Source: Moorena sp. SIOASIH (GTDB lineage: Bacteria > Cyanobacteriota > Cyanobacteriia > Cyanobacteriales > Coleofasciculaceae). From it: a stretch of DNA of 64,000 nt. Made by a program: the position numbers and the translations under genes. Under the pieces are notes generated by a model that saw only the letters and a program-made list of their open reading frames with translations, searched no databases and was not told the origin of the DNA. The stretch covers positions 869,053 to 933,052 of the forward strand of contig NZ_JAAHIH010000001.1 in the NCBI RefSeq assembly GCF_010671925.1, given 5' to 3'. Below are positions 3,080 to 58,259 of this stretch, in pieces. How positions within the stretch are numbered: the first letter of the stretch is position 1; the number at the start of each line of letters is the position of its first letter.

Positions 3080-3162
3080 TGAATATTCACCACCAAGCTG
3101 TTAAAAATTAGTCACCATTACTAAATACCTAACACCTCTAACTATTATCAAGTTTTATGACA

Positions 3163-10582: not shown

Positions 10583-10741
10583 TAAGTAACTTTGATGAGC
10601 TTTTTTGTAGGAGGAGCAAGATCGATGTTACCTCTGAGTCATTGTCCTTAACCTGCCTACCACTAAATTGCCCCTTAATTACTTTAATAAGTATGTCAGT
10701 ATGACGTAGAAGTATGAGCTATGAATGATCAAGGATGAAGT

Positions 10742-11800
10742 ATGAAGATCGATGTCACAGATGAGTCATTGTCCCTATCTCCCCTACCGCTAAAACGCCC
10801 TTTATTAATGGTTGGTCACGGCACTAGAGACCCCGATGGGCGTCAGACTTTCCTTGATTTTGCCCAGACCTATCAAACCTTGAACCATTCTCGACCAGTA
10901 GTACCTTGTTTTTTAGAACTGACTGGTCCAACTATTCAACAGGGAGTAGAGAGTTGTGTCCAGCAGGGTTATACAGAACTCACTGTATTACCGATTTTAC
11001 TGTTTGCAGCTCGCCACAATAAATTTGATGTTACTAACGAGTTAGACCGGGCCAGGGCAAAATATCCCCAAGTCAAGTTTCACTACGGGCGTCATTTTGG
11101 AATTACTACGGGAATTCTGGATTTATGGCGGCAACGGCTTGCCAAACTTGACCAACCCCAAGCAGAGTTACCCGTTAGCCAATTGAAGGGTCAAGCTTCC
11201 AATCTAGAACCTTCCACAAAACAACCTTTACCCTTAAGAAAAGACACAGTACTTCTATTTGTTGGTCGTGGGTCGAGTGACCCTGATGCTAATGGTGATG
11301 TCTACAAAATGGCTCGCATGCTCTGGGAAGGCAGTGGCTATAAAACTGTGGAAACCTGCTTTATTGGCATTACCCATCCTCGGTTAGAAGAAGGGTTCCG
11401 TCGCGCCCGACTCTACCAACCTAAGCATATTATAGTACTTCCTTACTTCCTATTTACCGGGGCTTTAGTAAAAAAGATTTTTGAGATCACAGCTCAGCAG
11501 CAGAAACTTTATCCAGAGGTTCCCTTGACCTGTTTACCAGAAATGGGGATTCAACCTCAGCTGCTATCTGTGCTCAGGGACCGAGAAATCGAGGCTCAGT
11601 TAGGGCAAGTGCAGATGAATTGTGAGATGTGTAAGTTCCGGCTAGCAGCGATTGATAATGGTGCTGACAACGGACACTCCCACCACCATCACCACGGGCA
11701 TGACCATCACCACCACCACTCTCACCAGCATAATCACAATACCCCAGATCCCTATCAAGATTTGGAAAAATACCACCAGCGTATTTGGCAAGCACCCTAG
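10742..11800 (+). CDS. cbiX: sirohydrochlorin cobaltochelatase, long form CbiXL with His-rich tail and MxCxxC Fe-S motif
   Basis: Duplicated CbiX chelatase halves ([10 protein letters not shown] / [10 protein letters not shown]), MNCEMCKF, and a C-terminal [17 protein letters not shown] tail. Confidence 0.8.
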
Positions 11801-11805
11801 GGTTG

Positions 11806-12250
11806 GCCCCTTGAAGGTTAACAGGTTGAAGGTTAACAGGTTGGCCGGTTGAAGGTTGGCCGGTTGAAGGTTGGCCGGTTGAAGGTTGGAGGTTAACAGG
11901 TTGAAGGTTAACAGGTTGAAGGTTAATCCAGACAACTTCCAACCTATACTACAAGGGACGCCTGGGCAAGAACAACATTCAACCAAATAACATTCAACCA
12001 AACAACCTTCAACCTCCAACCCCATAACCTTCAACCTTCAACCCCATAACCTTCAACCTTCAACCCCATAACCTTCAACCTTCAACCCCATAACCTTCAA
12101 CCCCATAACCTTCAACCTTCAACCCCATAACCTTCAACCCCATAACCTTCAACCTTCAACCCCATAACCTTCAACCTTCAACCCCATAACCTTCAACCTT
12201 CAACCCCATAACCTTCAACCCCATAACCTTCAACCCCATAACCTTTTTTG
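11806..12250. repeat. STRR-like heptamer arrays arranged as inverted arms (GGTTGAAGGTTAACA... vs CCATAACCTTCAACC...)
   Basis: Tandem units read directly from the sequence. The downstream array is the reverse complement of the upstream array. Confidence 0.9.
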
Positions 12251-12258
12251 ACTGACCA

Positions 12259-12495
12259 ATGTCTAAAGACTTTAACGTTGGCGATCGCGTAAGAGTAATT
12301 ACATTACCACGCTACGTCAAAACTGCTGAACCAATGCCCATGCTGCGACCTCCTGATGTGATTAAAGTTGGGGAAGAGGGAGTAATCCTCGACCGACGTC
12401 CAGGAGGATACTGGGGTGTTCGCTTTTCTAGAGGAGCATTTCTGATCGATAGTCAGTACATTGAGTTAGTTCAGGAGGAAAATCCAAAGCCCTAA
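12259..12495 (+). CDS. small conserved cyanobacterial protein of unknown function
   Basis: 78-aa ORF with good coding character, in an intergenic position after the repeat array. Confidence 0.45.
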   Translation: MSKDFNVGDRVRVITLPRYVKTAEPMPMLRPPDVIKVGEEGVILDRRPGGYWGVRFSRGAFLIDSQYIELVQEENPKP

Positions 12496-17305: not shown

Positions 17306-17512
17306 GCTGTTAGAAGGCAAAAGGCAAAAGGCAAAAGGCAAAAGGCAGAAGGCAAAAGGCAGAAGGCAAAAGGCAAAAGGCAAAAGGCAGAAGGCAGAAG
17401 GCAAAAGGCAAAAGGCAAAAGGCAAAAGGCAAAAGGCAAAAGGCAAAAGGCAGAAGGCAGAAGGCAAAAGGCAGAAGGCAAAAGGCAAAAGGCAAAATGC
17501 CAAAGTAGTTTA
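17290..17512. repeat. (AAGGCARA)n octamer tandem array, ~27 units
   Basis: Direct reading. Both frames give artefactual KAKGKRQ / AFCLLP ORFs. Confidence 0.95.
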
Positions 17513-25019: not shown

Positions 25020-25943
25020 GTGGTTATAAGCAATAGAGTTAGGTTAATCTTAAACAAAAGTGAGGTAACGACAATCAACATGGAAGCTATTGAACTCGAA
25101 GTCAGCCAACTAAAATTTTTACTGAAGCTACTGAGCAAACCGGATTATCGGGCATTGATTACGGAAGCGAAACCCAATTCTAAAACCTCAGCGGGGGAAC
25201 GAGATCGAATTTGTCGGGAGTTATGCGATCGCAATTTGATTGACTCTAATCAAGAAATCACAAAAATTCAGATCACTGATGCAGGCAAGGAACTTCTAAA
25301 CCAAGATCAGGCTGAAGTACCAATGAGCACGAAAGAACGCAAAATTATCAAAGCCTGTGAAACAGAACCGACTACTCCCGCCAAGACAAACGTTAAGCCT
25401 GCTAAGACCCGAAAGGAAATCATGGAAGGTTTGATAGAACGGGGTTATATCACAGTAGCAGAAACTAAATTCAAAGATGTCTGGATTACTGAAACCGGTA
25501 TTGAGTACCTATTAAATAATTATAAACCCGTTGGTCGTGGCAATATCAATCTGTCTAAAACCATGCTAGCGGATTATATTGATTTCCTGCGGAAACAGCT
25601 GCCAAACTCAACAACTACAAACTCAGAAACAATCTCAGAATCAGATGGCAATTCAGCTCCGACTCTAGTCAATGCCCCTAATAATGAAGAAATATTACAA
25701 ATTATCAAGGATTTAGACCAAGAACTGGGTACGGAAAACTATTTGCCACTGTTTCATTTGCGCCAAAAGTTACAACCGCCTTTGTCTAGGGAAGAATTAG
25801 ATAAAGCACTGTATAGCTTGCAAGCAGAGGATAAAATTGATCTGAGTGCTTTGGAAGAAGCTAACATGTATACAGAGGAACAAATTGAAGCTGGTATTCC
25901 TCAAAATACCGGGGGGAGGCTATTTTTCATTATGGTGCAGTAA
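25020..25943 (+). CDS. hypothetical protein with two tandem winged-helix-like modules (probable start at M21, MEAIELEV)
   Basis: Internal repeat R..I...L..R.LI.......I.ITD/E.G.E.L appears twice. No catalytic motifs. First gene of a co-oriented three-gene cluster. Confidence 0.5.
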   Translation: MVISNRVRLILNKSEVTTINMEAIELEVSQLKFLLKLLSKPDYRALITEAKPNSKTSAGERDRICRELCDRNLIDSNQEITKIQITDAGKELLNQDQAEVPMSTKERKIIKACETEPTTPAKTNVKPAKTRKEIMEGLIERGYITVAETKFKDVWITETGIEYLLNNYKPVGRGNINLSKTMLADYIDFLRKQLPNSTTTNSETISESDGNSAPTLVNAPNNEEILQIIKDLDQELGTENYLPLFHLRQKLQPPLSREELDKALYSLQAEDKIDLSALEEANMYTEEQIEAGIPQNTGGRLFFIMVQ

Positions 25944-26032
25944 AGTATGATAAACTAACCTAAGGCTTCAAGCTAAGGCTTCCCAATTGTTAATCCTCTA
26001 TCCTTTTCCACTCTATAGATCTAATTTTAGAG

Positions 26033-28045
26033 ATGGCAACGATCCAGGAAATAATTCAACAAGCTCCAAACCCGTTTGACACCGTGACCTTTACTACGGG
26101 TAATTTTTGGGAAGATCCAGACAATGGAGCTGTTAATGTCAAATCGATTCATCAAGATGAAATTAATCAGATAACCACCACCCTCAGTGCGGTGACTCAA
26201 GACCATCGACCCCGCACTATCTTACTGGCTGGTGATCCTGGTGCGGGGAAAAGTTATCTGTTAAAACGGCTCAAACAGCAGCTCAATCAAGACGCCTTTT
26301 TTGCTTATATCGGTCCTTGGGCAAATAGCGATCGCATCTGGCGCTATATCCTCAGGGAAACCGTTGAAAGTCTGCTCAAAATCCCAGAAGGAGAACAAGA
26401 GTCTCAGTTACTGCTGTGGCTCAAGAGTCTCCCGGTCTTTAAAAAAACCGGCTGGCTCCGGAATGAGCGACAACAGTTTATTGGTGACCTCAGAGCTACC
26501 TATCCAACCGGAATTCATAGAAATAAGGAATTTTTTGGAGTCCTCTATGAACTAACTAATCCAGAACGATATCACTTGGCTTATCAATGGTTAAGGGGAG
26601 AAGATTTAGATGAAGATGATTTGGAAACCCTTCGGGTCAGAGGCTCTATAGATAACGAAGACGATGCTCAGAACATCTTAATCAACTTCGGGAGAATTTC
26701 TTCATACACCAAGCCAATTGTGCTGTGTTTTGACCAATTGGATAATATTCCTCGTTTGCCTGATGGTTATCTGGATCTAGAAGCTCTGTTTAATGTCAAC
26801 TCTACCCTCCATACTCGCTATCCCAATAACATGCTGATTATAATCAGCATGATTAGCAATACCTTGAGACGGAATCAAAAACAAATTAAACCCGCTAATA
26901 TTGCTAGACTTAATCATAAAATTCTGCTCAAAAGGATTACCCTAGAGCAAGCAGAATCCCTTTGGGCAAACCGACTATATTCGTTACATCAGCAAGCTGA
27001 TCAAAAACCAATTTTACCGATTTATCCTTTAACTCGGCAAGACCTCGAAAAAGCATTTCCTGGTGGCAAAACTACTCCTCGGGAGACATTGACCCTGGGA
27101 AATCAGCTAATTGAAAGATATAAAACTCAGATAGTTAATAGTTCAGATCCATCAACCAAGACTAAATCAACTAGTCAAGATGATACCGCTGGTAAATCAA
27201 TACCGAGAGCAGAAAAAGCCTTAGCTTCATTTAAATGGAAGTGGCAAAAAGAATTTCAAAAAACTGAGCAGAAAATTACCCGAATCGGAACAAATTATGA
27301 ACCTGAATTGATTAAGATGTTACGAGAGGCATTAGAAGCTCTGGAGGTCAAGGATGTTAAATCAAACTTTTTGTCAGGTAGTTTTGCCAGTTATTCCCTA
27401 AGTTACCAGCTGCCATCATCCCAGGAACGGATCGGATTAGTCTGGGGAGAAACTACTAATGGTAACAGCTTTTATCATCTGATGAATGCCTGTGATAAAG
27501 CTATTCAAGGCAATCGCTGTCAAACCTTATACCTAATTCGCTATACAGAAGTTAAAAAACGTGGTCTTAAGGGGGACAAACTCTACAGCAAACTATTCAA
27601 TGGTTCTGGCCATATTCACCTCAAATTAGAAGACCTCTCCTCTGTCTATTACTTAGCTACTTATCATAGCTTAGTTAATCAAGCTTTTTCCCAAGAGTTA
27701 GTGCTTGCTGATACAATACTAACACTGCCAGAGTTACAAGATATAATCCGAAAATCGTTAATTTTGCAGGATTGTCCCTTACTACAAGAGTTGAATATTT
27801 TTCCTAGTAAGGTTAACGATACTCAACTTGTTACCAAGCCGGTTAAGGAATTTGTGATAAATCTGCTCAAACAGAATCAAATTATTGGTCATAATGTTTT
27901 AATTAAAACTACTCAGAATAAATTGACTTCCATCAAGGAAATAGCAATTCACCAAGGAATTAAGGAACTGTCTCAGGAAAATAAAATTAAACTTCTCCCT
28001 GTGGATGGTTCCCTAGATAAACAATTAGTATGTTTGGTACCGTAA
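26033..28045 (+). CDS. P-loop NTPase, NACHT-like STAND family
   Basis: Walker A GDPGAGKS. Walker B hhhhFDQLD resembles NACHT hhhhDGhDE. Long alpha-helical C-terminal region. Confidence 0.6.
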   Translation: MATIQEIIQQAPNPFDTVTFTTGNFWEDPDNGAVNVKSIHQDEINQITTTLSAVTQDHRPRTILLAGDPGAGKSYLLKRLKQQLNQDAFFAYIGPWANSDRIWRYILRETVESLLKIPEGEQESQLLLWLKSLPVFKKTGWLRNERQQFIGDLRATYPTGIHRNKEFFGVLYELTNPERYHLAYQWLRGEDLDEDDLETLRVRGSIDNEDDAQNILINFGRISSYTKPIVLCFDQLDNIPRLPDGYLDLEALFNVNSTLHTRYPNNMLIIISMISNTLRRNQKQIKPANIARLNHKILLKRITLEQAESLWANRLYSLHQQADQKPILPIYPLTRQDLEKAFPGGKTTPRETLTLGNQLIERYKTQIVNSSDPSTKTKSTSQDDTAGKSIPRAEKALASFKWKWQKEFQKTEQKITRIGTNYEPELIKMLREALEALEVKDVKSNFLSGSFASYSLSYQLPSSQERIGLVWGETTNGNSFYHLMNACDKAIQGNRCQTLYLIRYTEVKKRGLKGDKLYSKLFNGSGHIHLKLEDLSSVYYLATYHSLVNQAFSQELVLADTILTLPELQDIIRKSLILQDCPLLQELNIFPSKVNDTQLVTKPVKEFVINLLKQNQIIGHNVLIKTTQNKLTSIKEIAIHQGIKELSQENKIKLLPVDGSLDKQLVCLVP

Positions 28046-28320
28046 GCTATCAGCAATCAGCAATCAGCAATCAGCTATCAGCAATCAGCTATCAGCAATC
28101 AGCTATCAGTTATCAGTTATCAGCTATCAGCTATCAGCTATCAGCTATCAGCTATCAGCTATCAGCAATCAGCTATCAGCTATCAGCTATCACAGGCTAG
28201 AAGCCTGTGCCACACTACTTGAGGTGCCATTGGCCAAAGACTGACGGCTGACCGCTGACGGCTGACCGCTGACGGCTAAAGATTATTCTACCATAGCTAA
28301 AATTCGGATAACAAGCGCCA

Positions 28321-31062
28321 ATGTACCTGACTCAACCAGCCCAGATCCGAAAGTTAATCCTGAATTTATCAGCAGCAAAAATTCTCTGGTTAGATACAGA
28401 AATTGCTGATTGGGATACCCCTAATCCGAGATTATCTCTGATTCAGGTATTGGCTGATCCGACAGATACAAATGGTGAAAAAGCTTACATTTTAGATGTA
28501 TTAGACAAACCGGAAGTAGTGATAGACTTTGTTAACTATATTATGGTCAATCCTAACATTGAAAAAGTCTTTCACAACGCTAGTTTTGATTTACGGTATC
28601 TAGGGGGTAAAGAGCAAGCTAATAATGTTACCTGTACCTATAAAATAGCGAGAAAGCTGACCAATAAGAAACTGTCTAATCCATTAGAGGTATCCAATAG
28701 TAAATTAAAAACACTAGCGCTAGAACTATGCCATTTCGCCAATGTCGATACAGACGAACAAAGCAGTGATTGGGGCAAACGTCCGCTAACCGAAAAACAG
28801 CTAAAGTATGCAAAACTGGATACAGTGTATCTAGCCCATGTCCATCGCCGCTTACTAGAAATTGCCAAAAATAGCTCGAATCCAGAGCAGATGGTCACCA
28901 GAAAATCACGGACGCAACAATCAGAATCCCCTGGCTTCAGTGTTACCCAAGTTAGGGTAGCCCTTGAATGTCCTCGCTTATTTTATTTGAGTCATCACTT
29001 TGGTGGAAAAACCCTATTTATACCACCATCCAACTCACCAGGTATTGGGACAGTATTCCATCAGCTATGTCAACAGTCTACTGACACACTCCAGCAAGAT
29101 TCCCGATTTCAAGCTTTATTTTCTCCCACAGCAAGTCAGCTAGACCTAGGCCAGATTAGCTCTAAGATCCAAGCGCTACTGTATGAGCTAGTGGTTTTCC
29201 CTCAAATCGATGACTTAGAGATAGCCTCCCTACTTCCACTGTGGCAAGGATTAAAATCACTATTTCCCCATTGGACTCAACTGCTAGTTACTAATCGAGG
29301 CTATTGTCAGCCAGAGGAAGTAATTAGTAAAACCTTCGTTGCTCAAGAAATGAACCTCAGTTATAACTTCACTCTTCCTGATGGCACCGAGCAACACGTT
29401 AATGGAAAATTTGATAGCTTAATTTTCGACTGTGAACGCGATCGCTATTGTGTCGTAGACTATAAAACCTATCAACCGGTAGATCCATCCGCTAACCTAG
29501 CTCAAGTAGCTCTCTATAGTTACATGCTCCACCAAAAAAAAGGAGTAGCAATAGATGCAGCGGTTTATTGTGTTTTACCGGAATTCCAAAAACACTACTA
29601 TTCCCGGGAAGAGCTAGAGGATACAGTGCATCAGCTCATTCCCCATAAATTACAACAGATGCGGGAATGGCTGACTTGGAAACCTGCCCAGGTCGAAGAG
29701 GAGGGAGATGGAGAAAGTAGAAAAAACCATTGCACTCCAGCAATCGATAAGGGCAACCTGGAGCCACCACCACCGACACCACAGCTTCAGCTATGCAACA
29801 TTTGTCCCCAACAGCAGACCTGTCAAACCTTTTTTGAGGAGGTGAAAACTGAGCAAAAGCCAGTCAAGGCACCATCCCGCAAAATTCCTGAGACTGAGCA
29901 AAAGTCGGTTAAGCCACGTACCGCTAAAACTCGTAATCCTGAGCAAAAGCCAGTCAAGGCACCATCCCAAGCAACTCCTGAGACTGATCAGATCGGGCAA
30001 AAATTGGTGAGTACTCTAGAAGGCTTTAACATTAGTGTCGATTATGTCAACGCAACAGTTGCTCCAGCATTTGTCCGGATCAAGCTAAAACCCAATCGTG
30101 GGGTAAAAGTCATATCTATACAGAATCGCTCCAAGGATTTAAAAGTACACTTAGGTCTGGATAATCCTCCGCTGATTACTCCGAAAGCTGGGTATGTCAG
30201 TGTGGATTTACCACGGAAGGATGAGGATAGAGAAGTAGCTAGATTTGATGACTATATCCAGCTTACAGCAAATTCCGCCCCCCTAACCCCCCAATCTTGG
30301 GGGGAAATTGAGTTAAAGTCTCCCAGGATTGCGGTTGGAGTAAATTTAGATGGGAAATTGGTAGAGGCGGATTTATCGGATCCTAATACCTGTCACTTTT
30401 TGGTAGGGGGCACAACCGGAAGTGGCAAGAGTGAATTTTTGCGATCGCTTCTGCTATCCCTACTTTATAACCATTCTGCTGAACAGCTCAAAATTGCTCT
30501 AGTTGATCCCAAGCGCGTCACTTTCCCAGAATTTGAGCAAATGCCATGGTTGCTGTCACCAATCGTTAAAGATAGCGATCGCGCTATCGAACTGATGGAG
30601 CAATTAGTTGATGAAATGGAGCAGCGTTACCGGAAATTTGAACAAGCCAAGTGTCCTCACCTGGATGCTTATAATCAGCAATTGAGTAATAAACAAAACC
30701 TAGCTTTACCTCGGATAGTTTGTATTTTTGACGAATATGCTGACTTCATGGCAGAAAAAGAAATCCGCAAAGAGTTAGAATTAAGCATTAAGCGTTTAGG
30801 AGCCAAAGCTAGAGCAGCTGGGATTCATTTGATTGTTGCTACTCAACGGCCAGATGCTAACGTTGTTACTCCGATTATTCGCTCTAATTTACCAGGGCGA
30901 ATTGCTTTACGCACAGCGTCTGAAGCCGACTCAAAGATTATTTTTGGTGGCAGCAACACTGAAGCAGCTTATTTGTTGGGTAAGGGAGATTTATTATATC
31001 AAAAGGGTGGTAAGTTAGAGCGATTGCAGAGTTTGTTTGCTGAGACAATTAAATTGCCTTGA
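28321..31062 (+). CDS. three-domain fusion: DEDDy 3'-5' exonuclease + Cas4/RecB-like 4-Cys PD-(D/E)xK nuclease + FtsK/SpoIIIE-type DNA translocase ATPase (no gamma domain)
   Basis: ExoI LWLDTE, ExoII FHNASFDL, ExoIII YAKLDTVY. Cys...C-x2-C-x5-C (ECPRLF; CNICPQQQTC) with GKFDSL, VVDYK and QVALYSY nuclease motifs. FtsK beta-domain, Walker A GGTTGSGKSEFL, Walker B IVCIFDEYADF, and ATQRPDANVVTPIIRSNLPGRIALRTASEADSKIIFG. Confidence 0.75.
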   Translation: MYLTQPAQIRKLILNLSAAKILWLDTEIADWDTPNPRLSLIQVLADPTDTNGEKAYILDVLDKPEVVIDFVNYIMVNPNIEKVFHNASFDLRYLGGKEQANNVTCTYKIARKLTNKKLSNPLEVSNSKLKTLALELCHFANVDTDEQSSDWGKRPLTEKQLKYAKLDTVYLAHVHRRLLEIAKNSSNPEQMVTRKSRTQQSESPGFSVTQVRVALECPRLFYLSHHFGGKTLFIPPSNSPGIGTVFHQLCQQSTDTLQQDSRFQALFSPTASQLDLGQISSKIQALLYELVVFPQIDDLEIASLLPLWQGLKSLFPHWTQLLVTNRGYCQPEEVISKTFVAQEMNLSYNFTLPDGTEQHVNGKFDSLIFDCERDRYCVVDYKTYQPVDPSANLAQVALYSYMLHQKKGVAIDAAVYCVLPEFQKHYYSREELEDTVHQLIPHKLQQMREWLTWKPAQVEEEGDGESRKNHCTPAIDKGNLEPPPPTPQLQLCNICPQQQTCQTFFEEVKTEQKPVKAPSRKIPETEQKSVKPRTAKTRNPEQKPVKAPSQATPETDQIGQKLVSTLEGFNISVDYVNATVAPAFVRIKLKPNRGVKVISIQNRSKDLKVHLGLDNPPLITPKAGYVSVDLPRKDEDREVARFDDYIQLTANSAPLTPQSWGEIELKSPRIAVGVNLDGKLVEADLSDPNTCHFLVGGTTGSGKSEFLRSLLLSLLYNHSAEQLKIALVDPKRVTFPEFEQMPWLLSPIVKDSDRAIELMEQLVDEMEQRYRKFEQAKCPHLDAYNQQLSNKQNLALPRIVCIFDEYADFMAEKEIRKELELSIKRLGAKARAAGIHLIVATQRPDANVVTPIIRSNLPGRIALRTASEADSKIIFGGSNTEAAYLLGKGDLLYQKGGKLERLQSLFAETIKLP

Positions 31063-31141: not shown

Positions 31142-31870
31142 CTACTCAACACCCCGAGCCACACGAAAACCGACATTGGTTTTGATGGCATCGCGCGTGA
31201 AATTGTAGTCGCGTTGGGCAGAACGGCAATGAATAGGAGAGCTGGTCCAGGACCCGCCCCGCAGAATATATTTAGTATGATTACTAGTAGGTTTAGTCCA
31301 GACACTCCCATCTGTAGGAGGATCTCCTTTGTAATTATCATGCCTTGGATCCGCACACCACTCCCAAAGATTGCCGTGCATATCGTATAAGCCAAAGCCG
31401 TTGGGGGGAAAAATTCCTACGTCGGTGGTTTCTTCTCGATATTTCCATTCTTCTTCCTCTGCATAAGTAAAGTCACCGTTATAGTTAGCTAATTTACTGG
31501 TTATGGTCTCTCCATAATGGAATGGTGTGGTAGTTCCTGCTCTACAAGCGTATTCCCATTCCGCTTCACTGGGTAATCTGTATTCCGTTCCTGTATGTTT
31601 AGAGAGGCGATCGCAAAATTCCACCGCATCGTACCAGCTTACTTGCTCTACTGGTCGCTTCTCTCCTTTAAATATCGAAGGGTCTGGCTTTAAGTCCCGG
31701 TTAACTTTTGGGAGTTTGGCCACAGCTCGCCATTGCGCTTGGGTTACCAGATATTTGCCCAGGAAGAAGGGTTGGATGGTTACTTGGTGTTGAGGTCTTT
31801 CAGTTTCATCACTCCCCCTCTCAGTTTCCGGGGAACCCATTAAGAAGGTTCCGGCTGGGATATACACCAT
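31142..31870 (-). CDS. stand-alone formylglycine-generating-enzyme/sulfatase-modifying (FGE-sulfatase, FGS) domain protein; truncated tandem duplicate of the 3' half of 32680..34878
   Basis: ~70% aa identity to the C-terminal domain of the CHAT-FGS protein (MVYIPAG...RLPSEAEWEYACRAGTTTPFHYGETITS...YDMHGNLWEWC). Nucleotide similarity extends upstream to ~32010. Confidence 0.7.
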   Translation of the reverse strand: MVYIPAGTFLMGSPETERGSDETERPQHQVTIQPFFLGKYLVTQAQWRAVAKLPKVNRDLKPDPSIFKGEKRPVEQVSWYDAVEFCDRLSKHTGTEYRLPSEAEWEYACRAGTTTPFHYGETITSKLANYNGDFTYAEEEEWKYREETTDVGIFPPNGFGLYDMHGNLWEWCADPRHDNYKGDPPTDGSVWTKPTSNHTKYILRGGSWTSSPIHCRSAQRDYNFTRDAIKTNVGFRVARGVE

Positions 31871-32176
31871 GTCTAGGTCTACTCCATTCCCCAGATCTTG
31901 AGTGAAATAATCCGCTTGCTGGGATTTTCGGTTGATTATTGCTCCTCTACGGTTAACTGTTACTACTTGAAAGGAAAACTGCTTTAAACCTTTTGGCTCT
32001 GCCGTTTGTTTGTAAACTAATAAATTAGAAATGTCATTGGCATTTTTTTATAACCATTGCTTTAGTTGCTCAGCCTCTGACTTAGGAATATTTCCATTTA
32101 CTAATAAACGATCGACAAATTTTACAATAAATTTTTCATCATCATTTCGTTGATGTATATGTATATGATCCAAATT

Positions 32177-32581
32177 TTATAGAATTTCATAAAAAGTGTT
32201 AGGATTTTTATTTTGACAATCGGGACAACAATCTCTGTAAGACTTTTGCATTTGTTTTATCAAGTTTTTTTCTAAAGGAATCAATATATTGATTAAACTA
32301 GTGGTAATTTTGAAATTTTCCTCAATCGCTTTTAATTTAGCATTATTTTGATTTTGTTTAAGTGCTCTATCAATTAATTCTTCTAACTGATTGTAAGCCT
32401 GACAATACATTATTAATTTGTGAACTATTGCCTTTAAATTTCCACCGCTAGCAACCTCGTTCAGATTTATATTTAATTCAAAAAGCACCATCATTTCTAA
32501 GTCAGTTTTATCAGGAAAAGCACTACACAGTGCTTCGTTTATCTTTTTGAGTAGATAACCAAGGGTATGTCCAGTATTCAT
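32177..32581 (-). CDS. small alpha-helical protein of unknown function (AT-rich, ~30% GC)
   Basis: 134-aa ORF, C-terminal CCPDCQN. Lies in an AT-rich insert between the two FGS copies. Confidence 0.45.
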   Translation of the reverse strand: MNTGHTLGYLLKKINEALCSAFPDKTDLEMMVLFELNINLNEVASGGNLKAIVHKLIMYCQAYNQLEELIDRALKQNQNNAKLKAIEENFKITTSLINILIPLEKNLIKQMQKSYRDCCPDCQNKNPNTFYEIL

Positions 32582-32679: not shown

Positions 32680-34878
32680 CTAAATCTTCCCAACACTCTG
32701 AGCCACACGAAATCCGACCTTGACGAAGATGAAAACGCTCAGTTTAAAGAGGTTAAAGTGGTCGGAGTAGTCGGAGCGGAAGGCAGAACGGCAATCCCCA
32801 GCCTCGGTGTTCCACGAGCCGCCCCGCATAATATAATAATTAAAAGGATTATGTTTTTTACTCCAGACACTCGCATCTGTAGGGGCTCCTTTGTAATTAT
32901 CATGGAAAGGATCCGCACACCATTCCCAAACATTTCCGTGCATATCGTATAAGCCAAAGCTGTTGGGAGGAAAACTTCTTACTGGGGTGGTTTTTCTTCG
33001 ATACTCCCCTTTTTTTTCCTTTGCATAAGTATCGGAAGCCTTATAATTAGCTAATTCACTGGTTATAGTCTCTCCATAATGGAATGGTGTGGTAGTTCCG
33101 GCTCTACAGGCATATTCCCATTCTGCTTCACTGGGTAATCTGTATTGCTTTCCTGTATATTTAGAAAGGCGATCGCAAAATTCCACTGCATCGAACCAGG
33201 TTACTCGCTCTACTGGTCGATTCTCTCCTTTAAATTCAGAGGGGTCTGGATCTAAGTCATGTTTAACTTTTGGGAGGTTTTGAACCACAGCTTTCCATTG
33301 CGCCTGGGTTACCTGATATTTCCCCAGGAAAAAGGGTGGGATGGTTACTTGGTGTTGAGGTCTTTCCCTGTCATCAATCCACCTCTCTCTTATCGAGGAA
33401 CCCATTGAGAAGCGTCCTGCTGGGATATACACCATATCTAGGGGGTCTACTCCATTGCCCAGATCTTGAGTAAAATAACTTGCTTGTTTATTTTCTCGCT
33501 CGCTTATTAATCCTTTACCGTTAACTGTTACTACTTCAAAGGAAAACTGCTTTAGACCTTCTGGATGTTGCCCATTACCAAATAACTTCCCCCCCTTTTT
33601 ATCAGACCAACGTAGGTAAAGCACTGGGCGATACCATTGGTTTCCCTCTCTACCCATTTGAGCCTGTCCCATACTAACAGCAGTAGTTAGGACTTTTTTG
33701 TTCCCTAATGCTCGATAAAACCGCTCTGCAAAAGCAGTTGCCCCTTTTACGGTAACATTGTATTGCATAGCTACCACTGCTGGAATCTGTTGCTCTATCA
33801 ATTTTTGAGCCACACCGTTGAACACAGAATCGCTTCCCAGTGCCTTCCCCGTTTGACAAGCACTCATAACCACCAAACGAATGCCTTGGTCTGGTTTTTG
33901 TTCTAAATCAAGATTACTTTTTTGAATCAGCTCACTAATTTCTGTAGCACTAATATAATCGGCCTCTTTAGTACTATCTTTTTGGTTAGGTTTAAACAGT
34001 AAGTAACCTTGGGGAGATGGATCTAAAGGATAGCCACATTTTCGGCATTCCTTCGCTGTGAGATCGTCATGGATAGTACGGCATTGCTCTTGATTGCAAC
34101 GTTTACCGAAAAAGCCATGACCATCGAAGTGAATGAGATGAGGCGTTTTGTCTTCAGAGATTTGGGTGAGGTAATCTCCAAATTCTTTGAAAGTCGGAGA
34201 TTTTAGGGTTTCTACCTCAATTGTGCCTTCTGCTTCAGCTTGTTTGAGTCCTCTTAGTATAGCTGTTTGCTCTTGATAGTCAAGGGAAACTAAACCCATA
34301 TCTGTATCGCCAACAGGGGATGAGACCAGGAAAACCTTGATTTTGTTTACTGGTGGAAGTTCAGGTATTTTTTGGACAAAGCCAATTAACCGTGAAAAAG
34401 TCACTTGTCGTCCAGCCAGAAATCCGCGATCGTCGCAAGCTAATTCCCAAGGATAATCCGGTAAACGTCCTCTCTGGTCAATTTTTTCATTAAATTGAAT
34501 TTGAATATGTAGTTGTTCCCCTTTATCAAGGCTCCCTAACATTATAGTTAATAAATCCCTGCCATCTCCTGGGGGAAAAAGAGTGTTATAGATATCTTTT
34601 CCAATCTTCTTTAATAGTTGGGTATCGAAATGATTACCCTCTGAAGTAAGCCACCCTTGCTTTTTCATCCATTCTACTTCTTCCTCATAAAAGTTATTGG
34701 ATTTAAAAGCTACAGCACCAAGGGCGTCAATCATAGTAGTTCGCCATTGCTTTCTATTTTCAAAAAAGGGTAAACGGGAATGATAATCTGCATGACCAGC
34801 TTCTCCATAGGCATAAATTTGGATTTCTCCTGGCTCTGCACTTCTGGGTACGGTTAAAAATAATGTCAGTAGTTTCAT
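32680..34878 (-). CDS. CHAT (caspase-like) peptidase fused to C-terminal FGE-sulfatase (FGS) domain
   Basis: Caspase-fold His/Cys dyad (HLIHFDGHGFF; LVVMSACQTG). C-terminal SUMF1/FGE motifs as above. Confidence 0.85.
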   Translation of the reverse strand: MKLLTLFLTVPRSAEPGEIQIYAYGEAGHADYHSRLPFFENRKQWRTTMIDALGAVAFKSNNFYEEEVEWMKKQGWLTSEGNHFDTQLLKKIGKDIYNTLFPPGDGRDLLTIMLGSLDKGEQLHIQIQFNEKIDQRGRLPDYPWELACDDRGFLAGRQVTFSRLIGFVQKIPELPPVNKIKVFLVSSPVGDTDMGLVSLDYQEQTAILRGLKQAEAEGTIEVETLKSPTFKEFGDYLTQISEDKTPHLIHFDGHGFFGKRCNQEQCRTIHDDLTAKECRKCGYPLDPSPQGYLLFKPNQKDSTKEADYISATEISELIQKSNLDLEQKPDQGIRLVVMSACQTGKALGSDSVFNGVAQKLIEQQIPAVVAMQYNVTVKGATAFAERFYRALGNKKVLTTAVSMGQAQMGREGNQWYRPVLYLRWSDKKGGKLFGNGQHPEGLKQFSFEVVTVNGKGLISERENKQASYFTQDLGNGVDPLDMVYIPAGRFSMGSSIRERWIDDRERPQHQVTIPPFFLGKYQVTQAQWKAVVQNLPKVKHDLDPDPSEFKGENRPVERVTWFDAVEFCDRLSKYTGKQYRLPSEAEWEYACRAGTTTPFHYGETITSELANYKASDTYAKEKKGEYRRKTTPVRSFPPNSFGLYDMHGNVWEWCADPFHDNYKGAPTDASVWSKKHNPFNYYIMRGGSWNTEAGDCRSAFRSDYSDHFNLFKLSVFIFVKVGFRVAQSVGKI

Positions 34879-35086
34879 TATCTAAGGTGTTTTGCCTGGG
34901 AACTAGATATGAATGAAATCAACTAAAAACTATAGATATCTATCAAATTTTGCCTTTTGCCTCTCGCTGAATCTCACTTCTGCTGTTTGACCCGAGCAAC
35001 TTTTTGACAAATGAATATAAGATGCACCCTTTGCTTTTTGCCTTTGGCCTTGCTAAAACGGATTTTAAATTTTCAGCTTAGCTTTT

Positions 35087-35461
35087 CTATATCGATTTTC
35101 CACTTTTACCTTTGATCGTTCCCTCTATACTGTTGTTGATTGAGGGAAGAACAGTTCCTGGATATAAATCTTGACAGTATCGCTTCATTTCCTCTTTACT
35201 ATACAACGGCGATAGTTTAACCTTCACTTTTTGAAGTGAATCCTGACCAACTCCACCACTAGCTTCTGCTCCACCAACGGATAAAACATTCATTTTAATG
35301 CCAGCTTTTCCTTCTCTTTTCAGGGTTACTTGAAGCTCTAGTTCAACTGATTCCACAAAAAGAAAAGGAGCTGTTTTATTTTTTGCAGGTGTTAGTAATT
35401 CCCCTTTGACTTGCTCAACCAATTCCGCAAGTCCAATCGAACTATTTCCGTTATCAGTCAT
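35087..35461 (-). CDS. trypco2-family small protein (trypsin/CHAT co-occurring domain)
   Basis: Pattern IGLAELVEQVKGEL...FLFVESVELELQVTLKREGKAGIKMNVL...KVKVKLSP matches the small proteins that accompany CHAT/trypsin effectors. Same strand and adjacent to the CHAT gene. Confidence 0.6.
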   Translation of the reverse strand: MTDNGNSSIGLAELVEQVKGELLTPAKNKTAPFLFVESVELELQVTLKREGKAGIKMNVLSVGGAEASGGVGQDSLQKVKVKLSPLYSKEEMKRYCQDLYPGTVLPSINNSIEGTIKGKSGKSI

Positions 35462-35699
35462 GACTATATTGTAGTTTAGTGTTTAAGGTGAATCTAAATT
35501 TTTCTAGATTAATGAGACCTTGATGTAACAGGCATCTTGCTTATTACAGCTAGGCCCAATGCAGTGCGTTACGGGATGGACTTTTGTAAAACTGGCTACC
35601 AATAAAATTCTGCGATCCCTTCCCTAACGCACCTAATGCACCCTATGCACCCTACGCACCTTACGAACAGCTGATAACAAATAGCTGATAGCTTAACTA

Positions 35700-36272
35700 T
35701 TACCCCCATACTAACACAGCATACACTCCATAGATAAAATAAACACTAAATACAATCGCAATAATAATTCGAGACTTCATGGAAGTGTGGCGTCTCCACA
35801 ATACAAAGCATCCCACTATAACAGCCAACACTTCTAGGGGAGCAAAGATATGACCATAATGACGAGAATCCCAATAAGACACAGGGCTTTCAAAGCGCCA
35901 GTTTGACAATGGAAAAAAGTGACGGTGGGCATCGTCAGCATGGAGAGGAAAATCTCCTAACCCATGAAGAGCCATGCTAACAAACATAGCAATCAGAAAC
36001 GTTTGACGAAAATAGTAGGCTAACAACCCACCTATTAGTATCAATGGAAAAGAATTGAAAATATCGAAAAATACTTGCCAGTTTGGGTTATAATAAGATT
36101 CAGACCAGATTACGTTTTCAGGAATTCCTCTGAGGAGTTTCTCATATACGTAAAAAATTACCATTGGTAAATCCGGTAACATGGCACCGAACACAATTGG
36201 AAAATTATTTTCGGGCTTTCTTTTTTTTCCTAAAATTAGGAGATTGACGATGGCGTGAGCAGGAGTATTCAC
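35700..36272 (-). CDS. integral membrane protein, possible membrane-bound metal-dependent hydrolase
   Basis: Five to six TM helices with conserved His/Asp (HGLGDFPLHADDAHRHF). Confidence 0.45.
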   Translation of the reverse strand: MNTPAHAIVNLLILGKKRKPENNFPIVFGAMLPDLPMVIFYVYEKLLRGIPENVIWSESYYNPNWQVFFDIFNSFPLILIGGLLAYYFRQTFLIAMFVSMALHGLGDFPLHADDAHRHFFPLSNWRFESPVSYWDSRHYGHIFAPLEVLAVIVGCFVLWRRHTSMKSRIIIAIVFSVYFIYGVYAVLVWG

Positions 36273-51439: not shown

Positions 51440-52870
51440 ACTACCCCGGCCTACTTCGTTGTTCGCGAAGCGTGGCCTACGGCCAGGCCGGGGCTTCCAG
51501 CTTCACGGAAGAACGCCTTAGCTTAGACGGGCGTCCTCGCTTTGGTCTTACTTCTTCGACCCTGGCGTTGACCTCCCCCGTCCCAGAGGAGGATAGCATT
51601 CTGATCCCTTCTGCCCTAATATTCTTGGCCGCATTACCGTCTCTATCGTGGTGAGTTCCGCAACTTGGACAAACCCAAGTCCTTACATCTAGCGGCAACT
51701 CCTTGATACGGTAATGACAACTAGAGCAGGTCTTAGAGCTGGGGAACCACCGGTTTATTTCTACTAAAACTTTCCCTTCTTTTTCGCATTTATAGGAAAG
51801 GAAGTTTACAAAGGTTCCCCAGCCTAGATCAGAAATTGCTTTAGCTAGTTTGTGGTTACGAACCATGCCCTTGACGTTTAGGTTTTCGACTACCACTACC
51901 TGATTCTGGTCTACAATTTTTCTAGATAGTTTGTGCAGGTAGTCTTGGCGGACATTTCCAATACGTTCATATACCTTAGCTACAATCTTACGAGCCTTTT
52001 TGCGTCCACTGCTGCCCTTCTTCTTTCGGGCTGCAATGCGTTGTTTTTTGGCTAGTTTTTTCTCGGATCTATCTATAGGCTTGGGATTGCCAAATTTAGA
52101 GGTCTTTTCGCCGTCATAGGTAATAGCAAAATCCTTGATACCCAAATCAATCCCTATCACCTTTCCCTTCGTTGATGGCTTTACACTATCGGATTCGTAT
52201 TCCATCAAAACAGAAGCGTAATATTTGCCAGAAGGTGCTTTGCTGACTGTTACAGTTTTTATTTCCCCATCTAGTGGTTGATGAATTACAGCCTTGACAA
52301 CTCCTAATTTTCCAGGGAACTTTAGGCAATCACCCACCTGTTTAACATTTTGGGGATACTGAATTGATTGGCGATGATGATACGATTTAAATTTGGGATA
52401 TTTAGCTCTACCTTGGCCTATTGGCCACGCTACGCGAACAAAAAAGTTTTGATATGCACGACTAAGGTTTAGACTCACAGATTGCCAGACCTGGGAGTAA
52501 CAATCCTTTAGCCATTCAGTCTCCTTTTCTTTCTTGAGTTTTGGAAGCATAGAGTTGAGTGCAGATTGTTTCAAGCCTTTGCCAGTTTCCTTGTAAGTTT
52601 CTATGCACTGATTCAAGGCATAGTTCCACCACCAGCGAGCACATCCAAAGTGCTGGGCTAGTATCATTACTTGTTCTTGTGTGGGATAGATTCTGACTTT
52701 GACGGCTTTATGTTTCACTGCACTCAACCTTTTTATCGACCTGGATTACTATTATATAAGTTTTGTATTAAGACGTCAAGGTATAAAGTCAATTTTCTGG
52801 CTCGCTATCCATCCCCAACCTACTTGGCCGTAGGCCACGCTACGCGAACGTAGAGGTTGGGGAATTCCGC
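51440..52870. mobile_element. tnpB-only IS200/IS605-family element (IS1341-like)
   Basis: Terminal hairpins: RE 51445-51492 CCCCGGCCT...AGGCCGGGG and LE 52815-52862 CCAACCTAC...GTAGAGGTTGG. Both ends carry the inverted motif CGCGAAGCGTGGCCTACGGCC. Confidence 0.7.
51477..52727 (-). CDS. tnpB: TnpB (OMEGA RNA-guided RuvC-like nuclease, OrfB_IS605 family)
   Basis: N-terminal VRIYPTQEQ...ARWWWNYAL, RuvC triad (IGIDLGIKDF, ENLNVKGM, DRDGNAAKNI), and Zn ribbon CSSC...CPSCG. Confidence 0.85.
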   Translation of the reverse strand: MSAVKHKAVKVRIYPTQEQVMILAQHFGCARWWWNYALNQCIETYKETGKGLKQSALNSMLPKLKKEKETEWLKDCYSQVWQSVSLNLSRAYQNFFVRVAWPIGQGRAKYPKFKSYHHRQSIQYPQNVKQVGDCLKFPGKLGVVKAVIHQPLDGEIKTVTVSKAPSGKYYASVLMEYESDSVKPSTKGKVIGIDLGIKDFAITYDGEKTSKFGNPKPIDRSEKKLAKKQRIAARKKKGSSGRKKARKIVAKVYERIGNVRQDYLHKLSRKIVDQNQVVVVENLNVKGMVRNHKLAKAISDLGWGTFVNFLSYKCEKEGKVLVEINRWFPSSKTCSSCHYRIKELPLDVRTWVCPSCGTHHDRDGNAAKNIRAEGIRMLSSSGTGEVNARVEEVRPKRGRPSKLRRSSVKLEAPAWP

Positions 52871-55292: not shown

Positions 55293-58259
55293 TCATCCTT
55301 CAACCGTACTAGATAAGTCAGTAGGAACAACTACACACTCCAACTCCGCCTTGTGACTCTCCTGCTGGTTCTCCAAATTAATTGCGATCGCTTCAATTCT
55401 GATTTGAGTCGTGCCTTGGGGTATAACTAATTGAGTCATTGCCTCCAGCTCCCCAGCCGCATTGGGGAGTAAATCTATAATAGAACGGGTTTCCTGGAGC
55501 AGAGAGCGAGTTTGGACGTCTTTAACCCACAATTTAATACATAAACGAGATTGACTAGGAGGAAGTTTTATGGTAACCATTACCTTTTCTCCAGCAACTA
55601 ACTCCCTCGTAGTCGGTATTGATAAAGTGGGTGCTGCTAAGGTCGCATCCAACTCTAGGGATGAAAGATTCTCCAGTTTAGCCTTCAAGTCATGTTGCTT
55701 GGTTGCTTTAGGTTTTGTCGGTTGTGGGGCTATTTCTCGATCGTCCACTACAATTTCCTGAGTCGTCCAATCGTGACTAGTAATACCAACTCTAGGGGGT
55801 GTTTCTGGCGTTGCTAATTCTGAAGGAACTAGGGGCAAATCCTGAGATTCTGTCATTGACTCCAAGACCTTTTCTGGAAATTCCCTAACCTCTCCTTGAT
55901 TGCTAGCCTTTTGATTCCTCTGTTCATTTTCCACTGCTGATTGCTCTTCCCCAGCAGGATTACTCTCTGGGGATAATTCTAACCTCAGCAATTCCAACAA
56001 TTCATGATCTTCAGCTAAAGCACTCAACCGTGACCAAAAACGCTCTTCCATGTTTAAGGCTCGGAAAGATTCTTCTAAACCGAGCGACTCAGGATCTTGT
56101 ACAGACTCTAGAGTCTTCGTAGTATTGAATAATTGGTTTAGTTTGGAATTATTGAGCTGGGTATCAACTGATTCTGAATCCTCTAACTGATCATCTGTCT
56201 CAGATTCGTCAATTTCACTAATCTCAATAGTTTGGATTGGCTCAGATTCCATTAGGGAATTAATCAGCACTTCAGAAGCATCATTAGAATTAGATAAGAC
56301 CTCGGACTTTATCTCTAAAGTACTATCTTCAGTACTATCTTCCGACTGTTCTACTGTGTCTTGAACTACTGTGTCTTGAACTACTGTGTCTTGAACTACT
56401 GTGTCTTGAACTACTGTGTCTTGAACTACTGTGTCTTGAACTACTGTGTCTTGAGGCTGTAACTCTGACCCAGTATCTTTATCCCCATGCTCTAGTTCTG
56501 GATTGGCTGTAGTGGAGGAATCTTGATCATCTAGGGAAACTGACTCAGATACTTTAGACTGATCTTGGACATCTTCGTGCTGTGCCTCAGGGTCAGCCAC
56601 CGACTCGATTGTAGGCAAATTGGGCAATTGGATAGATTTAAAAGTTGTGTCACTCAGCTGATGGTGGTACAGTTTTGGTGGTAAAGAGCGTTTAGAGATA
56701 GGTTGCAAGAACAGAGATGGATGGTTTTGGGGTAGCTCAACCAGATCCAGGGGAGTCTGCTCTAAGGGGTCTTCATCTAATAATAGAAGGTCTTGATCAG
56801 GTTGATCAGATTTTGCAGATGCAGCGATCCGATTAGCCAGTACTACCATGGTTTCCATTGGCATCCCCTGATTCCCTGGCACAATTACTTCTAATAAATC
56901 CTCTACATTAGCTGTAACCGTAAATTGTTGAGTGGCTAAAGGAGTTGATTTTGAGTTATAAAGGGTTATTTTTCCTAAAATTAGACCACTTTGGCAATCC
57001 GTTGGAATATCTAGACTATGGCTAAACCCCAAAGATAACTCCTGTTGAGATAGGGAGTACTCAACATCTAACAAACGTTTTCCTGTTTGAGGAAACCGCA
57101 ATTGATAGCGTAGGGTAGCAGGAAATAAGTTTTCTAAAACACTATCTAAAACACTAACCGTTATCCCATCACCATTATTATAATTATCATTATCTAATAA
57201 CAATTCCCCTTTGATAGTCAAAGACTCTCCTCGCCTTGCCAGGAAAATTTCCTTATCTAGTCTTAGGGTTAAACCGTACTTATTAACCTCTGTATCTGAA
57301 ACCCAATCTGAATCAGAAGTTTTTCTTAGCTGTTGGTTATCTTCAGATTCCCTATCTTCCAACTCATCCAATACTGGCTGAAGGACCTGTTGTAGTAGTT
57401 GCTCCAAAGTCTCCAGAGATTCCTCCATGATGGAATTCTCAACAGTCGATTGGAGTGGTAAGTTTTCCGATATAGTTGCTGTTGGTTGTTGGTTGCTTTC
57501 AGGATTAACAGGTGCCTCTGGGTAAACCTCTTCTACCCCTTGCAAAACCGTCTCTTGGCTAGGACTAGATTCCTCTTGGCTAACCCCCATTGCTGCTTGG
57601 GCTTGGTCAACAGGTAACTCTGGCGCAGCAATGGTTATGGGTTGTTCTTCTGGTGGTGTTATCTGACTCTGGTACTCCTGAGGGTTAGAAAACTCTGAGC
57701 TAGCATCTGTTGCTTTCAGGTCATTAGCAATAGTATTGGTGGAGGGAGAATCAACAGCTAGCTCAGGTGTAGTCAAGGAATTGTCTATTTGAGGCGACTG
57801 AGTATCAGTTTGGGTTGCTTCTACTGGGGTGGATTCTACTGGGGTGGATTCTACTGGGGTGGATACAGAGGTTTTAAGGGGTGTCTCTACATCTTTGACC
57901 TTGGGTATGACTTGTAGCGCTAAGGATTTTCGCCATGACTCACCCAGAAAATCGTCCATGATATCGTTACTGCAACGTAACTTCCACAGACCAGGTTTAA
58001 GCTTGGTGAAAGGAATCACCACCATTAACCCTTCTGAGTTGGTGCGACGCCATCGTTTCTGGGACTTGCGTTTGGGTGGCACTTGCTCTGTGCTATCATA
58101 GGTGACGCAAATTTCTACATCAGTATTGGGCAAGTTGGAACGAGCCACTATCCGATACCGACCAGATTCAATTTCCATCTCAGAAGACTTGATTGGCTTC
58201 CAGGAGCGCTCTCCCTCTTTCTGTAGTAGAAATTCCCAGTACTTCTTAGGCATTGTCAA
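55293..58259 (-). CDS. large acidic low-complexity protein with in-frame tandem repeats (DTVVQ x7)
   Basis: 988-aa ORF. Globular N- and C-termini, and a central Glu/Asp/Ser/Thr/Pro-rich region with 15-nt perfect repeats at 56356-56455. Confidence 0.5.
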   Translation of the reverse strand: MTMPKKYWEFLLQKEGERSWKPIKSSEMEIESGRYRIVARSNLPNTDVEICVTYDSTEQVPPKRKSQKRWRRTNSEGLMVVIPFTKLKPGLWKLRCSNDIMDDFLGESWRKSLALQVIPKVKDVETPLKTSVSTPVESTPVESTPVEATQTDTQSPQIDNSLTTPELAVDSPSTNTIANDLKATDASSEFSNPQEYQSQITPPEEQPITIAAPELPVDQAQAAMGVSQEESSPSQETVLQGVEEVYPEAPVNPESNQQPTATISENLPLQSTVENSIMEESLETLEQLLQQVLQPVLDELEDRESEDNQQLRKTSDSDWVSDTEVNKYGLTLRLDKEIFLARRGESLTIKGELLLDNDNYNNGDGITVSVLDSVLENLFPATLRYQLRFPQTGKRLLDVEYSLSQQELSLGFSHSLDIPTDCQSGLILGKITLYNSKSTPLATQQFTVTANVEDLLEVIVPGNQGMPMETMVVLANRIAASAKSDQPDQDLLLLDEDPLEQTPLDLVELPQNHPSLFLQPISKRSLPPKLYHHQLSDTTFKSIQLPNLPTIESVADPEAQHEDVQDQSKVSESVSLDDQDSSTTANPELEHGDKDTGSELQPQDTVVQDTVVQDTVVQDTVVQDTVVQDTVVQDTVEQSEDSTEDSTLEIKSEVLSNSNDASEVLINSLMESEPIQTIEISEIDESETDDQLEDSESVDTQLNNSKLNQLFNTTKTLESVQDPESLGLEESFRALNMEERFWSRLSALAEDHELLELLRLELSPESNPAGEEQSAVENEQRNQKASNQGEVREFPEKVLESMTESQDLPLVPSELATPETPPRVGITSHDWTTQEIVVDDREIAPQPTKPKATKQHDLKAKLENLSSLELDATLAAPTLSIPTTRELVAGEKVMVTIKLPPSQSRLCIKLWVKDVQTRSLLQETRSIIDLLPNAAGELEAMTQLVIPQGTTQIRIEAIAINLENQQESHKAELECVVVPTDLSSTVEG

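Follow-up and report, generated by a model that had tools for sequence, protein, structure and literature searches.

Small bacterial proteins of the Trypco1 and Trypco2 families were recently renamed "Pepco" and were found to adjoin serine or cysteine proteases fused to sensors that include formylglycine-generating enzymes (FGEs) (Evans et al. 2025, bioRxiv 10.1101/2025.11.14.688446). In the same study, SsPepco of Streptomyces was present as pre-assembled, SDS-resistant beta-barrels of 9–10 subunits, and its partner protease cut it at Ile97/Arg98, removing a charged 2-kDa tail; Pepco truncated exactly at this position killed E. coli on its own, and deletion of Pepco abolished the toxicity of the Streptomyces system (Evans et al. 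2025, 10.1101/2025.11.14.688446). An amphipathic N-terminal helix is a feature of Pepco that is required for toxicity. Here we describe a two-gene module in a 64,000-nucleotide stretch of the genome of Moorena sp. SIOASIH (contig NZ_JAAHIH010000001.1, positions 869,053 to 933,052; hereafter the window), in which a 124-residue Trypco2 protein is encoded beside a CHAT-family protease that carries a C-terminal FGE-sulfatase (FGS) domain (hereafter CHAT::FGS). A database entry for Trypco2 with 100% identity bears the name Moorea sp. SIOASIH, and exact-sequence look-ups of the two proteins returned no record.

The closest described system is that of SsPepco and SsAvs4 in Streptomyces subrutilus (Evans et al. 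2025), which shares with the window a small Trypco-family gene immediately 5′ of a gene for a protease–sensor fusion and a conserved hydrophobic–basic pair before the C-terminal tail of the small protein (Ile97–Arg98 in SsPepco, Ile116–Lys117 here). The two differ in the protease (trypsin-like serine protease versus CHAT cysteine protease), in the sensor (Avs4 versus an FGS lectin-fold domain without a STAND ATPase), and in the tail, which comprises 20 charged and proline-rich residues in SsPepco and 7–8 basic residues in the window protein. The EACC1–caspase system ("System 4" of Kaur et al. 2020; KrAvs12 in Evans et al. 2025) likewise combines a small constant 5′ gene with a caspase-superfamily protease of highly variable C-terminus, and its small protein is a protease-activated pore former; however, EACC1 is an autoinhibited monomer that is cleaved mid-chain rather than a pre-formed barrel, the system is mainly actinobacterial, and the small protein of the window is Trypco2 and had no EACC1 match even at E ≤ 10. 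The VMAP (MoxR–vWA) ternary systems (Kaur et al. 2020, 2021) have FGS, EAD1, VMAP-M1, Trypco2, caspase-like peptidases, and TCAD3 in common with the window and its relatives (TCAD3 in locus L010), as well as a cyanobacterial, multicellular distribution, but the window contains no MoxR, vWA, or VMAP-C gene and retains only a pseudogenised EAD1–VMAP-M1–FGS frame. Previously, Trypco2 had been paired with trypsin-like peptidases, and caspases had been paired with an alpha/beta hydrolase (Kaur et al. 2020); here Trypco2 is paired with CHAT, and the EAD adaptors are bypassed by direct fusion. Among characterised CHAT proteases, SAVED-CHAT is activated by cyclic oligonucleotides and the TPR-CHAT of Craspase (Csx29) by target-RNA-bound Cas7-11, neither by a fused lectin domain; both act on other substrates and lack the four-cysteine insert described below, and the CHAT protein of the window has no detectable sequence similarity to PDB chains.

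We read the locus as a Pepco–protease death module in which a lectin-fold sensor is fused to the protease, such that the FGS domain would act as sensor, CHAT as protease, and Trypco2 as pore, and we assign this reading a probability of roughly 60%. Its features are as follows, all on the minus strand:

35087–35461: Trypco2/Pepco gene, 124 residues; predicted pre-toxin and beta-barrel pore former (Pfam PF19631)
34879–35086: Trypco2–CHAT spacer, 208 nucleotides
32680–34878: CHAT::FGS gene, 732 residues; N-terminal alpha+beta domain at residues 1–130, CHAT at about 135–434, disordered linker at 435–478, C-terminal FGS lectin-fold domain
34117–34119: codon of catalytic His254, in the motif HFDGHG
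33856–33858: codon of catalytic Cys341, in the motif SACQTG
34036–34098: four-cysteine insert (C261, C266, C278, C281; CX4C...CX2C)
32700–32817: hypervariable loop of FGS1, from RGGSW to VGFRV; predicted ligand-contacting region, resembling the variable region of a diversity-generating retroelement (DGR)
31142–32581: EAD1–VMAP-M1–FGS2 pseudogene, with in-frame TAA codons at 32177–32179 and 32048–32050

An earlier interpretation of this DNA, made without database searches (hereafter the sequence-only reading), had placed both open reading frames (ORFs) at exactly these coordinates and had named their domains, and the Pfam searches returned the same three families. For the small protein, the PF19631 match spanned all 78 model positions (1–78) and scored 63.5 bits, the gathering cut-off being 24.2 bits (E = 2.2e-17), and CHAT::FGS matched CHAT (PF12770; E = 1.1e-20, residues 135–410) and FGE-sulfatase (PF03781; E = 3.9e-60, residues 481–705). 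The intact CHAT dyad was likewise confirmed: His254 and Cys341 are each present in 66 of 66 Trypco2-linked CHAT homologues. Because of the PF19631 match and this invariance, the two points on which that reading could have failed, namely a mismatch of the small protein to the Trypco2 profile and a misprediction of the dyad, both came out in its favour. The profile match, the caspase–hemoglobinase fold, and the His–Cys dyad place CHAT among the clan CD cysteine proteases. Directly after the catalytic histidine, all Trypco2-linked CHAT proteins have an insert in which C261, C266, C278, and C281 are each conserved in at least 95% of the 66 homologues and which the Pfam CHAT model treats as an insertion; it is probably a zinc ribbon. 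An AlphaFold2 model of CHAT::FGS (mean predicted local distance difference test, pLDDT, 79.6) predicts the N-terminal alpha+beta domain with confidence, and the linker before FGS is disordered in it; the closest solved protease folds were SAVED-CHAT, Csx29, and separase, and a sequence search of the PDB with the CHAT half gave no match.

The small protein fits the anatomy of Pepco. Its AlphaFold2 monomer model (mean pLDDT 68) consists of a helix at residues 11–23, strands at 39–50, 54–62, and 76–83, two helices at 89–116, and a disordered terminus at 118–124. Strands 1 and 3 alternate between hydrophobic and charged residues (VLLVL and EEQTKE in strand 1, QVVL and LKKK in strand 3), as would be expected, in such a model, of a barrel whose outer face is hydrophobic and whose lumen is charged. 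Residues L11, V18, L22, and L23 of the first helix are near-invariant. Directly before the short C-terminal tail stands the motif Ile116–Lys117–Gly118, in which K117 and G118 are each conserved in 117 of 119 homologues; near their C-termini, 117 of 120 close homologues and 70 of 128 distant representatives have a hydrophobic-[K/R]-G motif, as compared with 15.6 of 128 by shuffling, and the homologues' tails beyond it have a median length of 12 residues, 42% of them Asp or Glu. A Foldseek search with the model found no fold match in the PDB (best E = 1.1). Since this anatomy fits Pepco, the module is read as an FGS sensor acting through CHAT on a Trypco2 pore. In the proposed sequence of events, the FGS domain would bind a molecule derived from an invader or from stress through its hypervariable loop; ligand binding would activate the CHAT protease, probably by bringing protease domains together; CHAT would clip the short Trypco2 tail at Ile116–Lys117–Gly118; and the oligomer, until then a harmless, pre-formed beta-barrel, would become a membrane pore, such that the infected cell would die before the invader could reach other cells of the filament. 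The formation of a barrel, the cleavage of its tail, and the toxicity of the pore are here carried over from the experiments on SsPepco and trypsin–Avs4, and we infer the ligand, the mode of protease activation, which bond exactly is cut, and a role in the defence of Moorena. An abortive-infection-type role for the module, also proposed in the sequence-only reading, is plausible.

The division of labour in this scheme departs from the sequence-only reading, which had cast CHAT::FGS as the effector and Trypco2 as its accessory. In the relative that has been studied experimentally, it is Pepco that kills, and the part of the protease is limited to licensing Pepco; by analogy, Trypco2 is most likely the killing effector here. 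That reading had also placed Trypco2 immediately downstream of CHAT::FGS on the same strand. The strand is correct, but the Trypco2 ORF (35461 to 35087) sits 208 nucleotides 5′ of the CHAT start at 34878 and, as both genes are on the minus strand, is transcribed first.

Several observations weigh against the reading of the locus as a Pepco-type death module. The Pepco with experimental support comes from Streptomyces and has a trypsin-like partner, being neither CHAT-linked nor cyanobacterial, and SsPepco was compared with the Trypco2 protein of the window through its published description. The tail of the window protein after the motif is atypical, consisting of six basic residues (KSGKSI) instead of the usual acidic stretch of about 12. 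The helix at residues 11–23 is not measurably amphipathic, with a hydrophobic moment of 0.23 (range to 0.36) against a shuffle mean of 0.22. The spacer between the two genes is unusually long, the gap being mostly 20–30 nucleotides in other loci, and a common transcript of Trypco2 and CHAT::FGS is putative; no terminator-like site was found on the minus strand of the spacer (34879–35086), and promoter-like matches there were at chance level. In PADLOC the two genes are not called as a defence system: the search returned only a weak SAVED_CHAT match (1e-5) for the protease and nothing for Trypco2. Finally, the ratio of nonsynonymous to synonymous substitutions (dN/dS) relative to the closest relative was about 1.0 for Trypco2 and 0.72 for CHAT, values that could reflect relaxed constraint and that derive from only 13 and 29 substitutions, respectively.

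The lack of measurable amphipathicity in the helix, together with the intact CHAT dyad, would also suit a different assignment of roles, in which CHAT is the terminal effector that degrades cellular proteins once FGS senses its ligand and Trypco2 is a non-toxic adaptor or regulator. This was the view in 2020, when Trypco2 was introduced merely as a trypsin-co-occurring domain (Kaur et al. 2020), and Trypco2 was later called an EAD-like adaptor (Dore et al. 2023). We regard this assignment as unlikely: in the SsPepco system deletion of Pepco abolished toxicity and truncated Pepco alone killed cells, and the alternation in strands 1 and 3 and the conserved motif before the tail fit a substrate and pre-toxin rather than an adaptor. 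Moreover, unlike the EADs, Trypco2 does not recur within its locus as a second copy joined to a partner protein, either in the window or in the related locus of Moorena sp. SIO4G3 (L005).

The sequence-only reading had taken FGS to be a sensing module, which is in line with Kaur et al. (2021) and also with the hypervariability of the FGS loop. The domain is assigned on its PF03781 match, a lectin fold with a TvpA-type N-terminal beta extension, and its C-terminal position in the protein, and its fold is closest to those of PvdO and the DGR variable protein TvpA. The functions of PvdO, GldK, and EgtB were considered and not assigned, as the NCBIfam matches were all far below their cut-offs. Catalytic FGE is marked by a copper-binding pair of cysteines, CxxxxC, that follows a GGS motif (Cys336 and Cys341 in the human enzyme). 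In CHAT::FGS, RGGSW is followed by NTEAGDCRSAFR, which has a single cysteine and no CxxxxC, and the HMMER alignments of the domain to human FGE stop before this region; the lack of the cysteine pair identifies FGS as a lectin-fold module and not an FGE enzyme.

The loop between RGGSW and VGFRV is hypervariable, being 40–65% identical among the three FGS copies compared as against 80–98% in most of the remaining domain, and AlphaFold2 pLDDT falls below 50 at residues 706–714. Between orthologues, 44–48% of first and second codon positions in the loop differ, versus 20% of third positions. The DNA of the loop follows a scaffold, TCNTGG-N18-TGCCGTTCTGCC-N3-CGC, that it has in common with the template repeats (TRs) of canonical cyanobacterial DGRs, and the TRs with this scaffold encode SWNNNPRNCRSANRNNN...NNNIGFRV. 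Proteins of the C-type-lectin/FGS fold are known as DGR variable proteins (Treponema TvpA; cyanobacterial targets, Vallota-Eastman 2020; Dore 2023), and the scaffold and the codon-position bias of the FGS1 loop are DGR-like. Nevertheless, targeting of this loop by a DGR is unproven, because the window contains no TR and no reverse transcriptase, no cognate repeat was found, and indels, a type of change that DGR mutagenesis does not produce, separate the three copies of the loop. A DGR target gene would be expected to have a reverse transcriptase and a TR that departs from the variable region at adenines only. The search of the 64-kb window for a cognate TR, by short-word BLAST and an adenine-tolerant sliding comparison, was negative, and a metagenome scan for the scaffold of variable region and TR returned many canonical DGR repeats, but none of its 153 motif hits was cognate (at least 47 non-A mismatches).

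To place the module within its family, one genome per species was scanned with a Trypco2 alignment, yielding 80 loci that were essentially all cyanobacterial and mostly from filamentous taxa. A CHAT ORF lay directly downstream of Trypco2 in 68 of these; seven of the other 12 loci were cut by a contig end, so the association holds in about 68 of 73 evaluable loci, and the distant Trypco2 representatives examined for partner type were either on short contigs or again CHAT-linked. The CHAT region, including the N-terminal alpha+beta domain, is constant across loci and the C-terminal part varies: among 66 proteins, the tails after CHAT comprised EAD9 (20), NB-ARC (13, usually with TPRs), EAD1 (8), CHASE2 (4), NACHT (4), and FGS (2). 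At the level of gene and domain content, this is the pattern expected of a constant protease–partner core with exchangeable sensor or adaptor modules. Fusion of FGS to CHAT recurs independently in Symplocastrum (L010, TCAD3–CHAT–FGS) and in several metagenomic proteins, and in the sister locus L025 an EAD1–VMAP-C gene adjoins.

The same survey bears on the label "NTP-independent" (independent of nucleoside triphosphates) that the sequence-only reading had given to the module. The label is apt for the domain content of CHAT::FGS and for the 64-kb window, among whose ORFs no MoxR, vWA, VMAP-C, STAND NTPase, or reverse-transcriptase gene was found. It may not extend to the system, given that 13 of 66 sister CHAT proteins carry NB-ARC and 4 of 66 NACHT, that many carry EAD adaptors, and that the pseudogene neighbouring CHAT::FGS encodes EAD1 and VMAP-M1, hallmarks of NTP-dependent VMAP systems.

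A further explanation is a non-antiviral use of the same wiring. The module would then serve cell death in the filament, during development or under stress, or would act there in signalling, and FGS would sense an endogenous glycan or metabolite. All 80 related loci came from cyanobacterial-type contigs, mostly filamentous, sister CHAT proteins bear CHASE2 small-molecule sensor domains, fusions of EACC1-associated proteases to DnaK-like chaperones suggest stress roles for such modules (Evans et al. 2025, 10.1101/2025.11.14.688446), and no phage gene lies nearby. We consider it quite unlikely, as near-identical genomes have hypervariable loops that differ above all at the first and second codon positions, which fits an arms race and not a fixed self-ligand, and as rapid swapping of sensor modules and an adjoining SspH-like cluster are typical of defence loci.

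Directly 3′ of CHAT::FGS lies a gene absent from the sequence-only reading. Two ORFs, at 32177–32581 (EAD1) and 31142–31870 (FGE-sulfatase), are one frame split by two TAA codons, and the read-through product contains EAD1 (residues 11–89), VMAP-M1 (99–188), and FGS (237–476), with both stops within VMAP-M1. Intact EAD1–VMAP-M1–FGS proteins of 470–510 residues are common in Moorena, including locus L005, and the frame in the window is thus either a pseudogene or an assembly error. Five metagenomic contigs (L001–L004 and L006) share with the window a block composed of a 190-residue gene, Trypco2, and residues 1–434 of CHAT, at 96.6% DNA identity up to window position 33575. Beyond this position, the FGS of the L001 type aligns best to the FGS2 of the pseudogene and not to the fused FGS1, with 95–98% identity over the core and 90% over the intergenic DNA 3′ of it, and the five contigs lack about 1.6 kb of the window, corresponding to FGS1, EAD1, and VMAP-M1. 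The same CHAT thus stands on FGS1 in one genome and on FGS2 in the other, which, from these alignments, looks like a swap of sensor cassettes by recombination among tandem copies. Synonymous divergence between window 33575–36272 and L001 8597–11304 was about 0.03 in Trypco2 and CHAT and 0.21 in the adjacent 190-residue membrane-protein gene, so exchange or conversion of the Trypco2–CHAT module may postdate the divergence of its flank.

The two halves of CHAT::FGS have different nearest relatives, CHAT–EAD1 proteins (79% identity) for the CHAT half and EAD1–VMAP-M1–FGS proteins (76–77%) for the FGS half, and both kinds are encoded in one island at the same 190-residue anchor gene in Moorena sp. 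SIO4G3. The fusion is therefore of the "Rosetta stone" kind, and in joining these halves it supports the proposal (Kaur et al. 2020) that EAD1 is the usual link between CHAT proteases and FGS sensors. The SIO4G3 island (L005, positions 1–12430) comprises three tandem EAD1–VMAP-M1–FGS genes, an fvmRadSAM-pep peptide, a ThiF-like E1, Trypco2, CHAT–EAD1, and EAD1–YukD-like ubiquitin-like genes. The 190-residue YdjM-like gene upstream of the module is not counted as a third component, a possibility that was weighed: it is confined to Moorena loci and lies 8 kb from Trypco2 in L005, and it accordingly serves as a synteny anchor.

A pseudogene at this position, and the far more extensive island that SIO4G3 has beside this anchor gene, also suit the explanation that the locus is a decaying, non-functional remnant of a VMAP-type island. 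The two in-frame stops, the dN/dS near 1 for Trypco2 and of 0.72 for CHAT, the atypical tail and long spacer, and the lack of a MoxR, vWA, or VMAP-C partner within 64 kb all point in that direction. We find decay very unlikely nonetheless: both ORFs are full length and keep all invariant residues of the family (the dyad, the four cysteines, QWYRPVLYLRW, the Trypco2 core, and K117–G118), an independent lineage has kept both genes of the block intact, at 96.6% DNA identity, and the dN/dS values are based on very few changes.

Beyond the reading of the locus as a Pepco-type death module, a bolder extension is a tentative possibility that we hold to be on the doubtful side. It would see the sensor swap as in progress, with recombination among tandem FGS copies, and possibly hypermutation by a DGR elsewhere in the genome, producing a diversifying, antibody-like lectin receptor that is wired without an NTPase to a protease-gated pore, and with the Ile/Leu-Lys-Gly cleavage motif and the zinc-ribbon CHAT clade as its unstudied parts.

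Around the module, the window contains housekeeping genes, copies of TnpB, an IscB-like gene, and, in convergent orientation, a cluster of three genes (25020–31062, plus strand). The sequence-only reading had treated cluster and module together as a defence island, which is plausible on light support: a 913-residue protein of the cluster matches SspH at 8e-70, and a sister genome (L001) shows synteny over the block. The SspH match, made in PADLOC, covers only the C-terminal part of the profile. The cluster encodes a 307-residue protein with weak winged-helix matches, a 670-residue AAA_16/KAP-like P-loop protein, and the 913-residue protein, which combines a DEDD 3′–5′ exonuclease, PD-(D/E)XK, and an FtsK/HerA-type ATPase. 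Elsewhere in the window, a 429-residue protein (9293–10582, plus strand) has the RRXRR (E = 2.6e-73) plus HNH architecture of IscB-like OMEGA nucleases; full-length TnpB/IS605 OrfB genes lie at 51477–52727 and 58403–59599, and a TnpB fragment with only a Cas12f1-like TNB domain at 7224–7646, all on the minus strand; and a 988-residue ORF (55293–58259, minus strand) has no Pfam match at E ≤ 1e-4. The Trypco2–CHAT spacer, which is 97% identical across the five metagenomic contigs, holds short copies of a GGCAAAA-type repeat; a tandem array of this heptamer, resembling short tandemly repeated repetitive sequences, occupies 17310–17500, and further short copies lie near 7822–7842. No Rfam family and no tRNA was found in or near the locus, and the spacer had no Rfam match.

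The module is an ordinary representative of a type whose mechanism was worked out in 2025 and does not constitute a new category; its modestly new points are the local history of sensor swapping and the predicted cleavage motif only. The value of the locus lies in a natural "Rosetta-stone" fusion that supports the proposed bridging of CHAT proteases and FGS sensors by EAD1 adaptors, a matched pair of genomes that differ in the sensor only, and a concrete predicted cleavage site for the CHAT-linked Pepco clade. If the proposed pathway is true, this multicellular bacterium would possess a compact, single-operon analogue of the animal pathway that leads from sensor to caspase to gasdermin, headed by a rapidly diversifying receptor.

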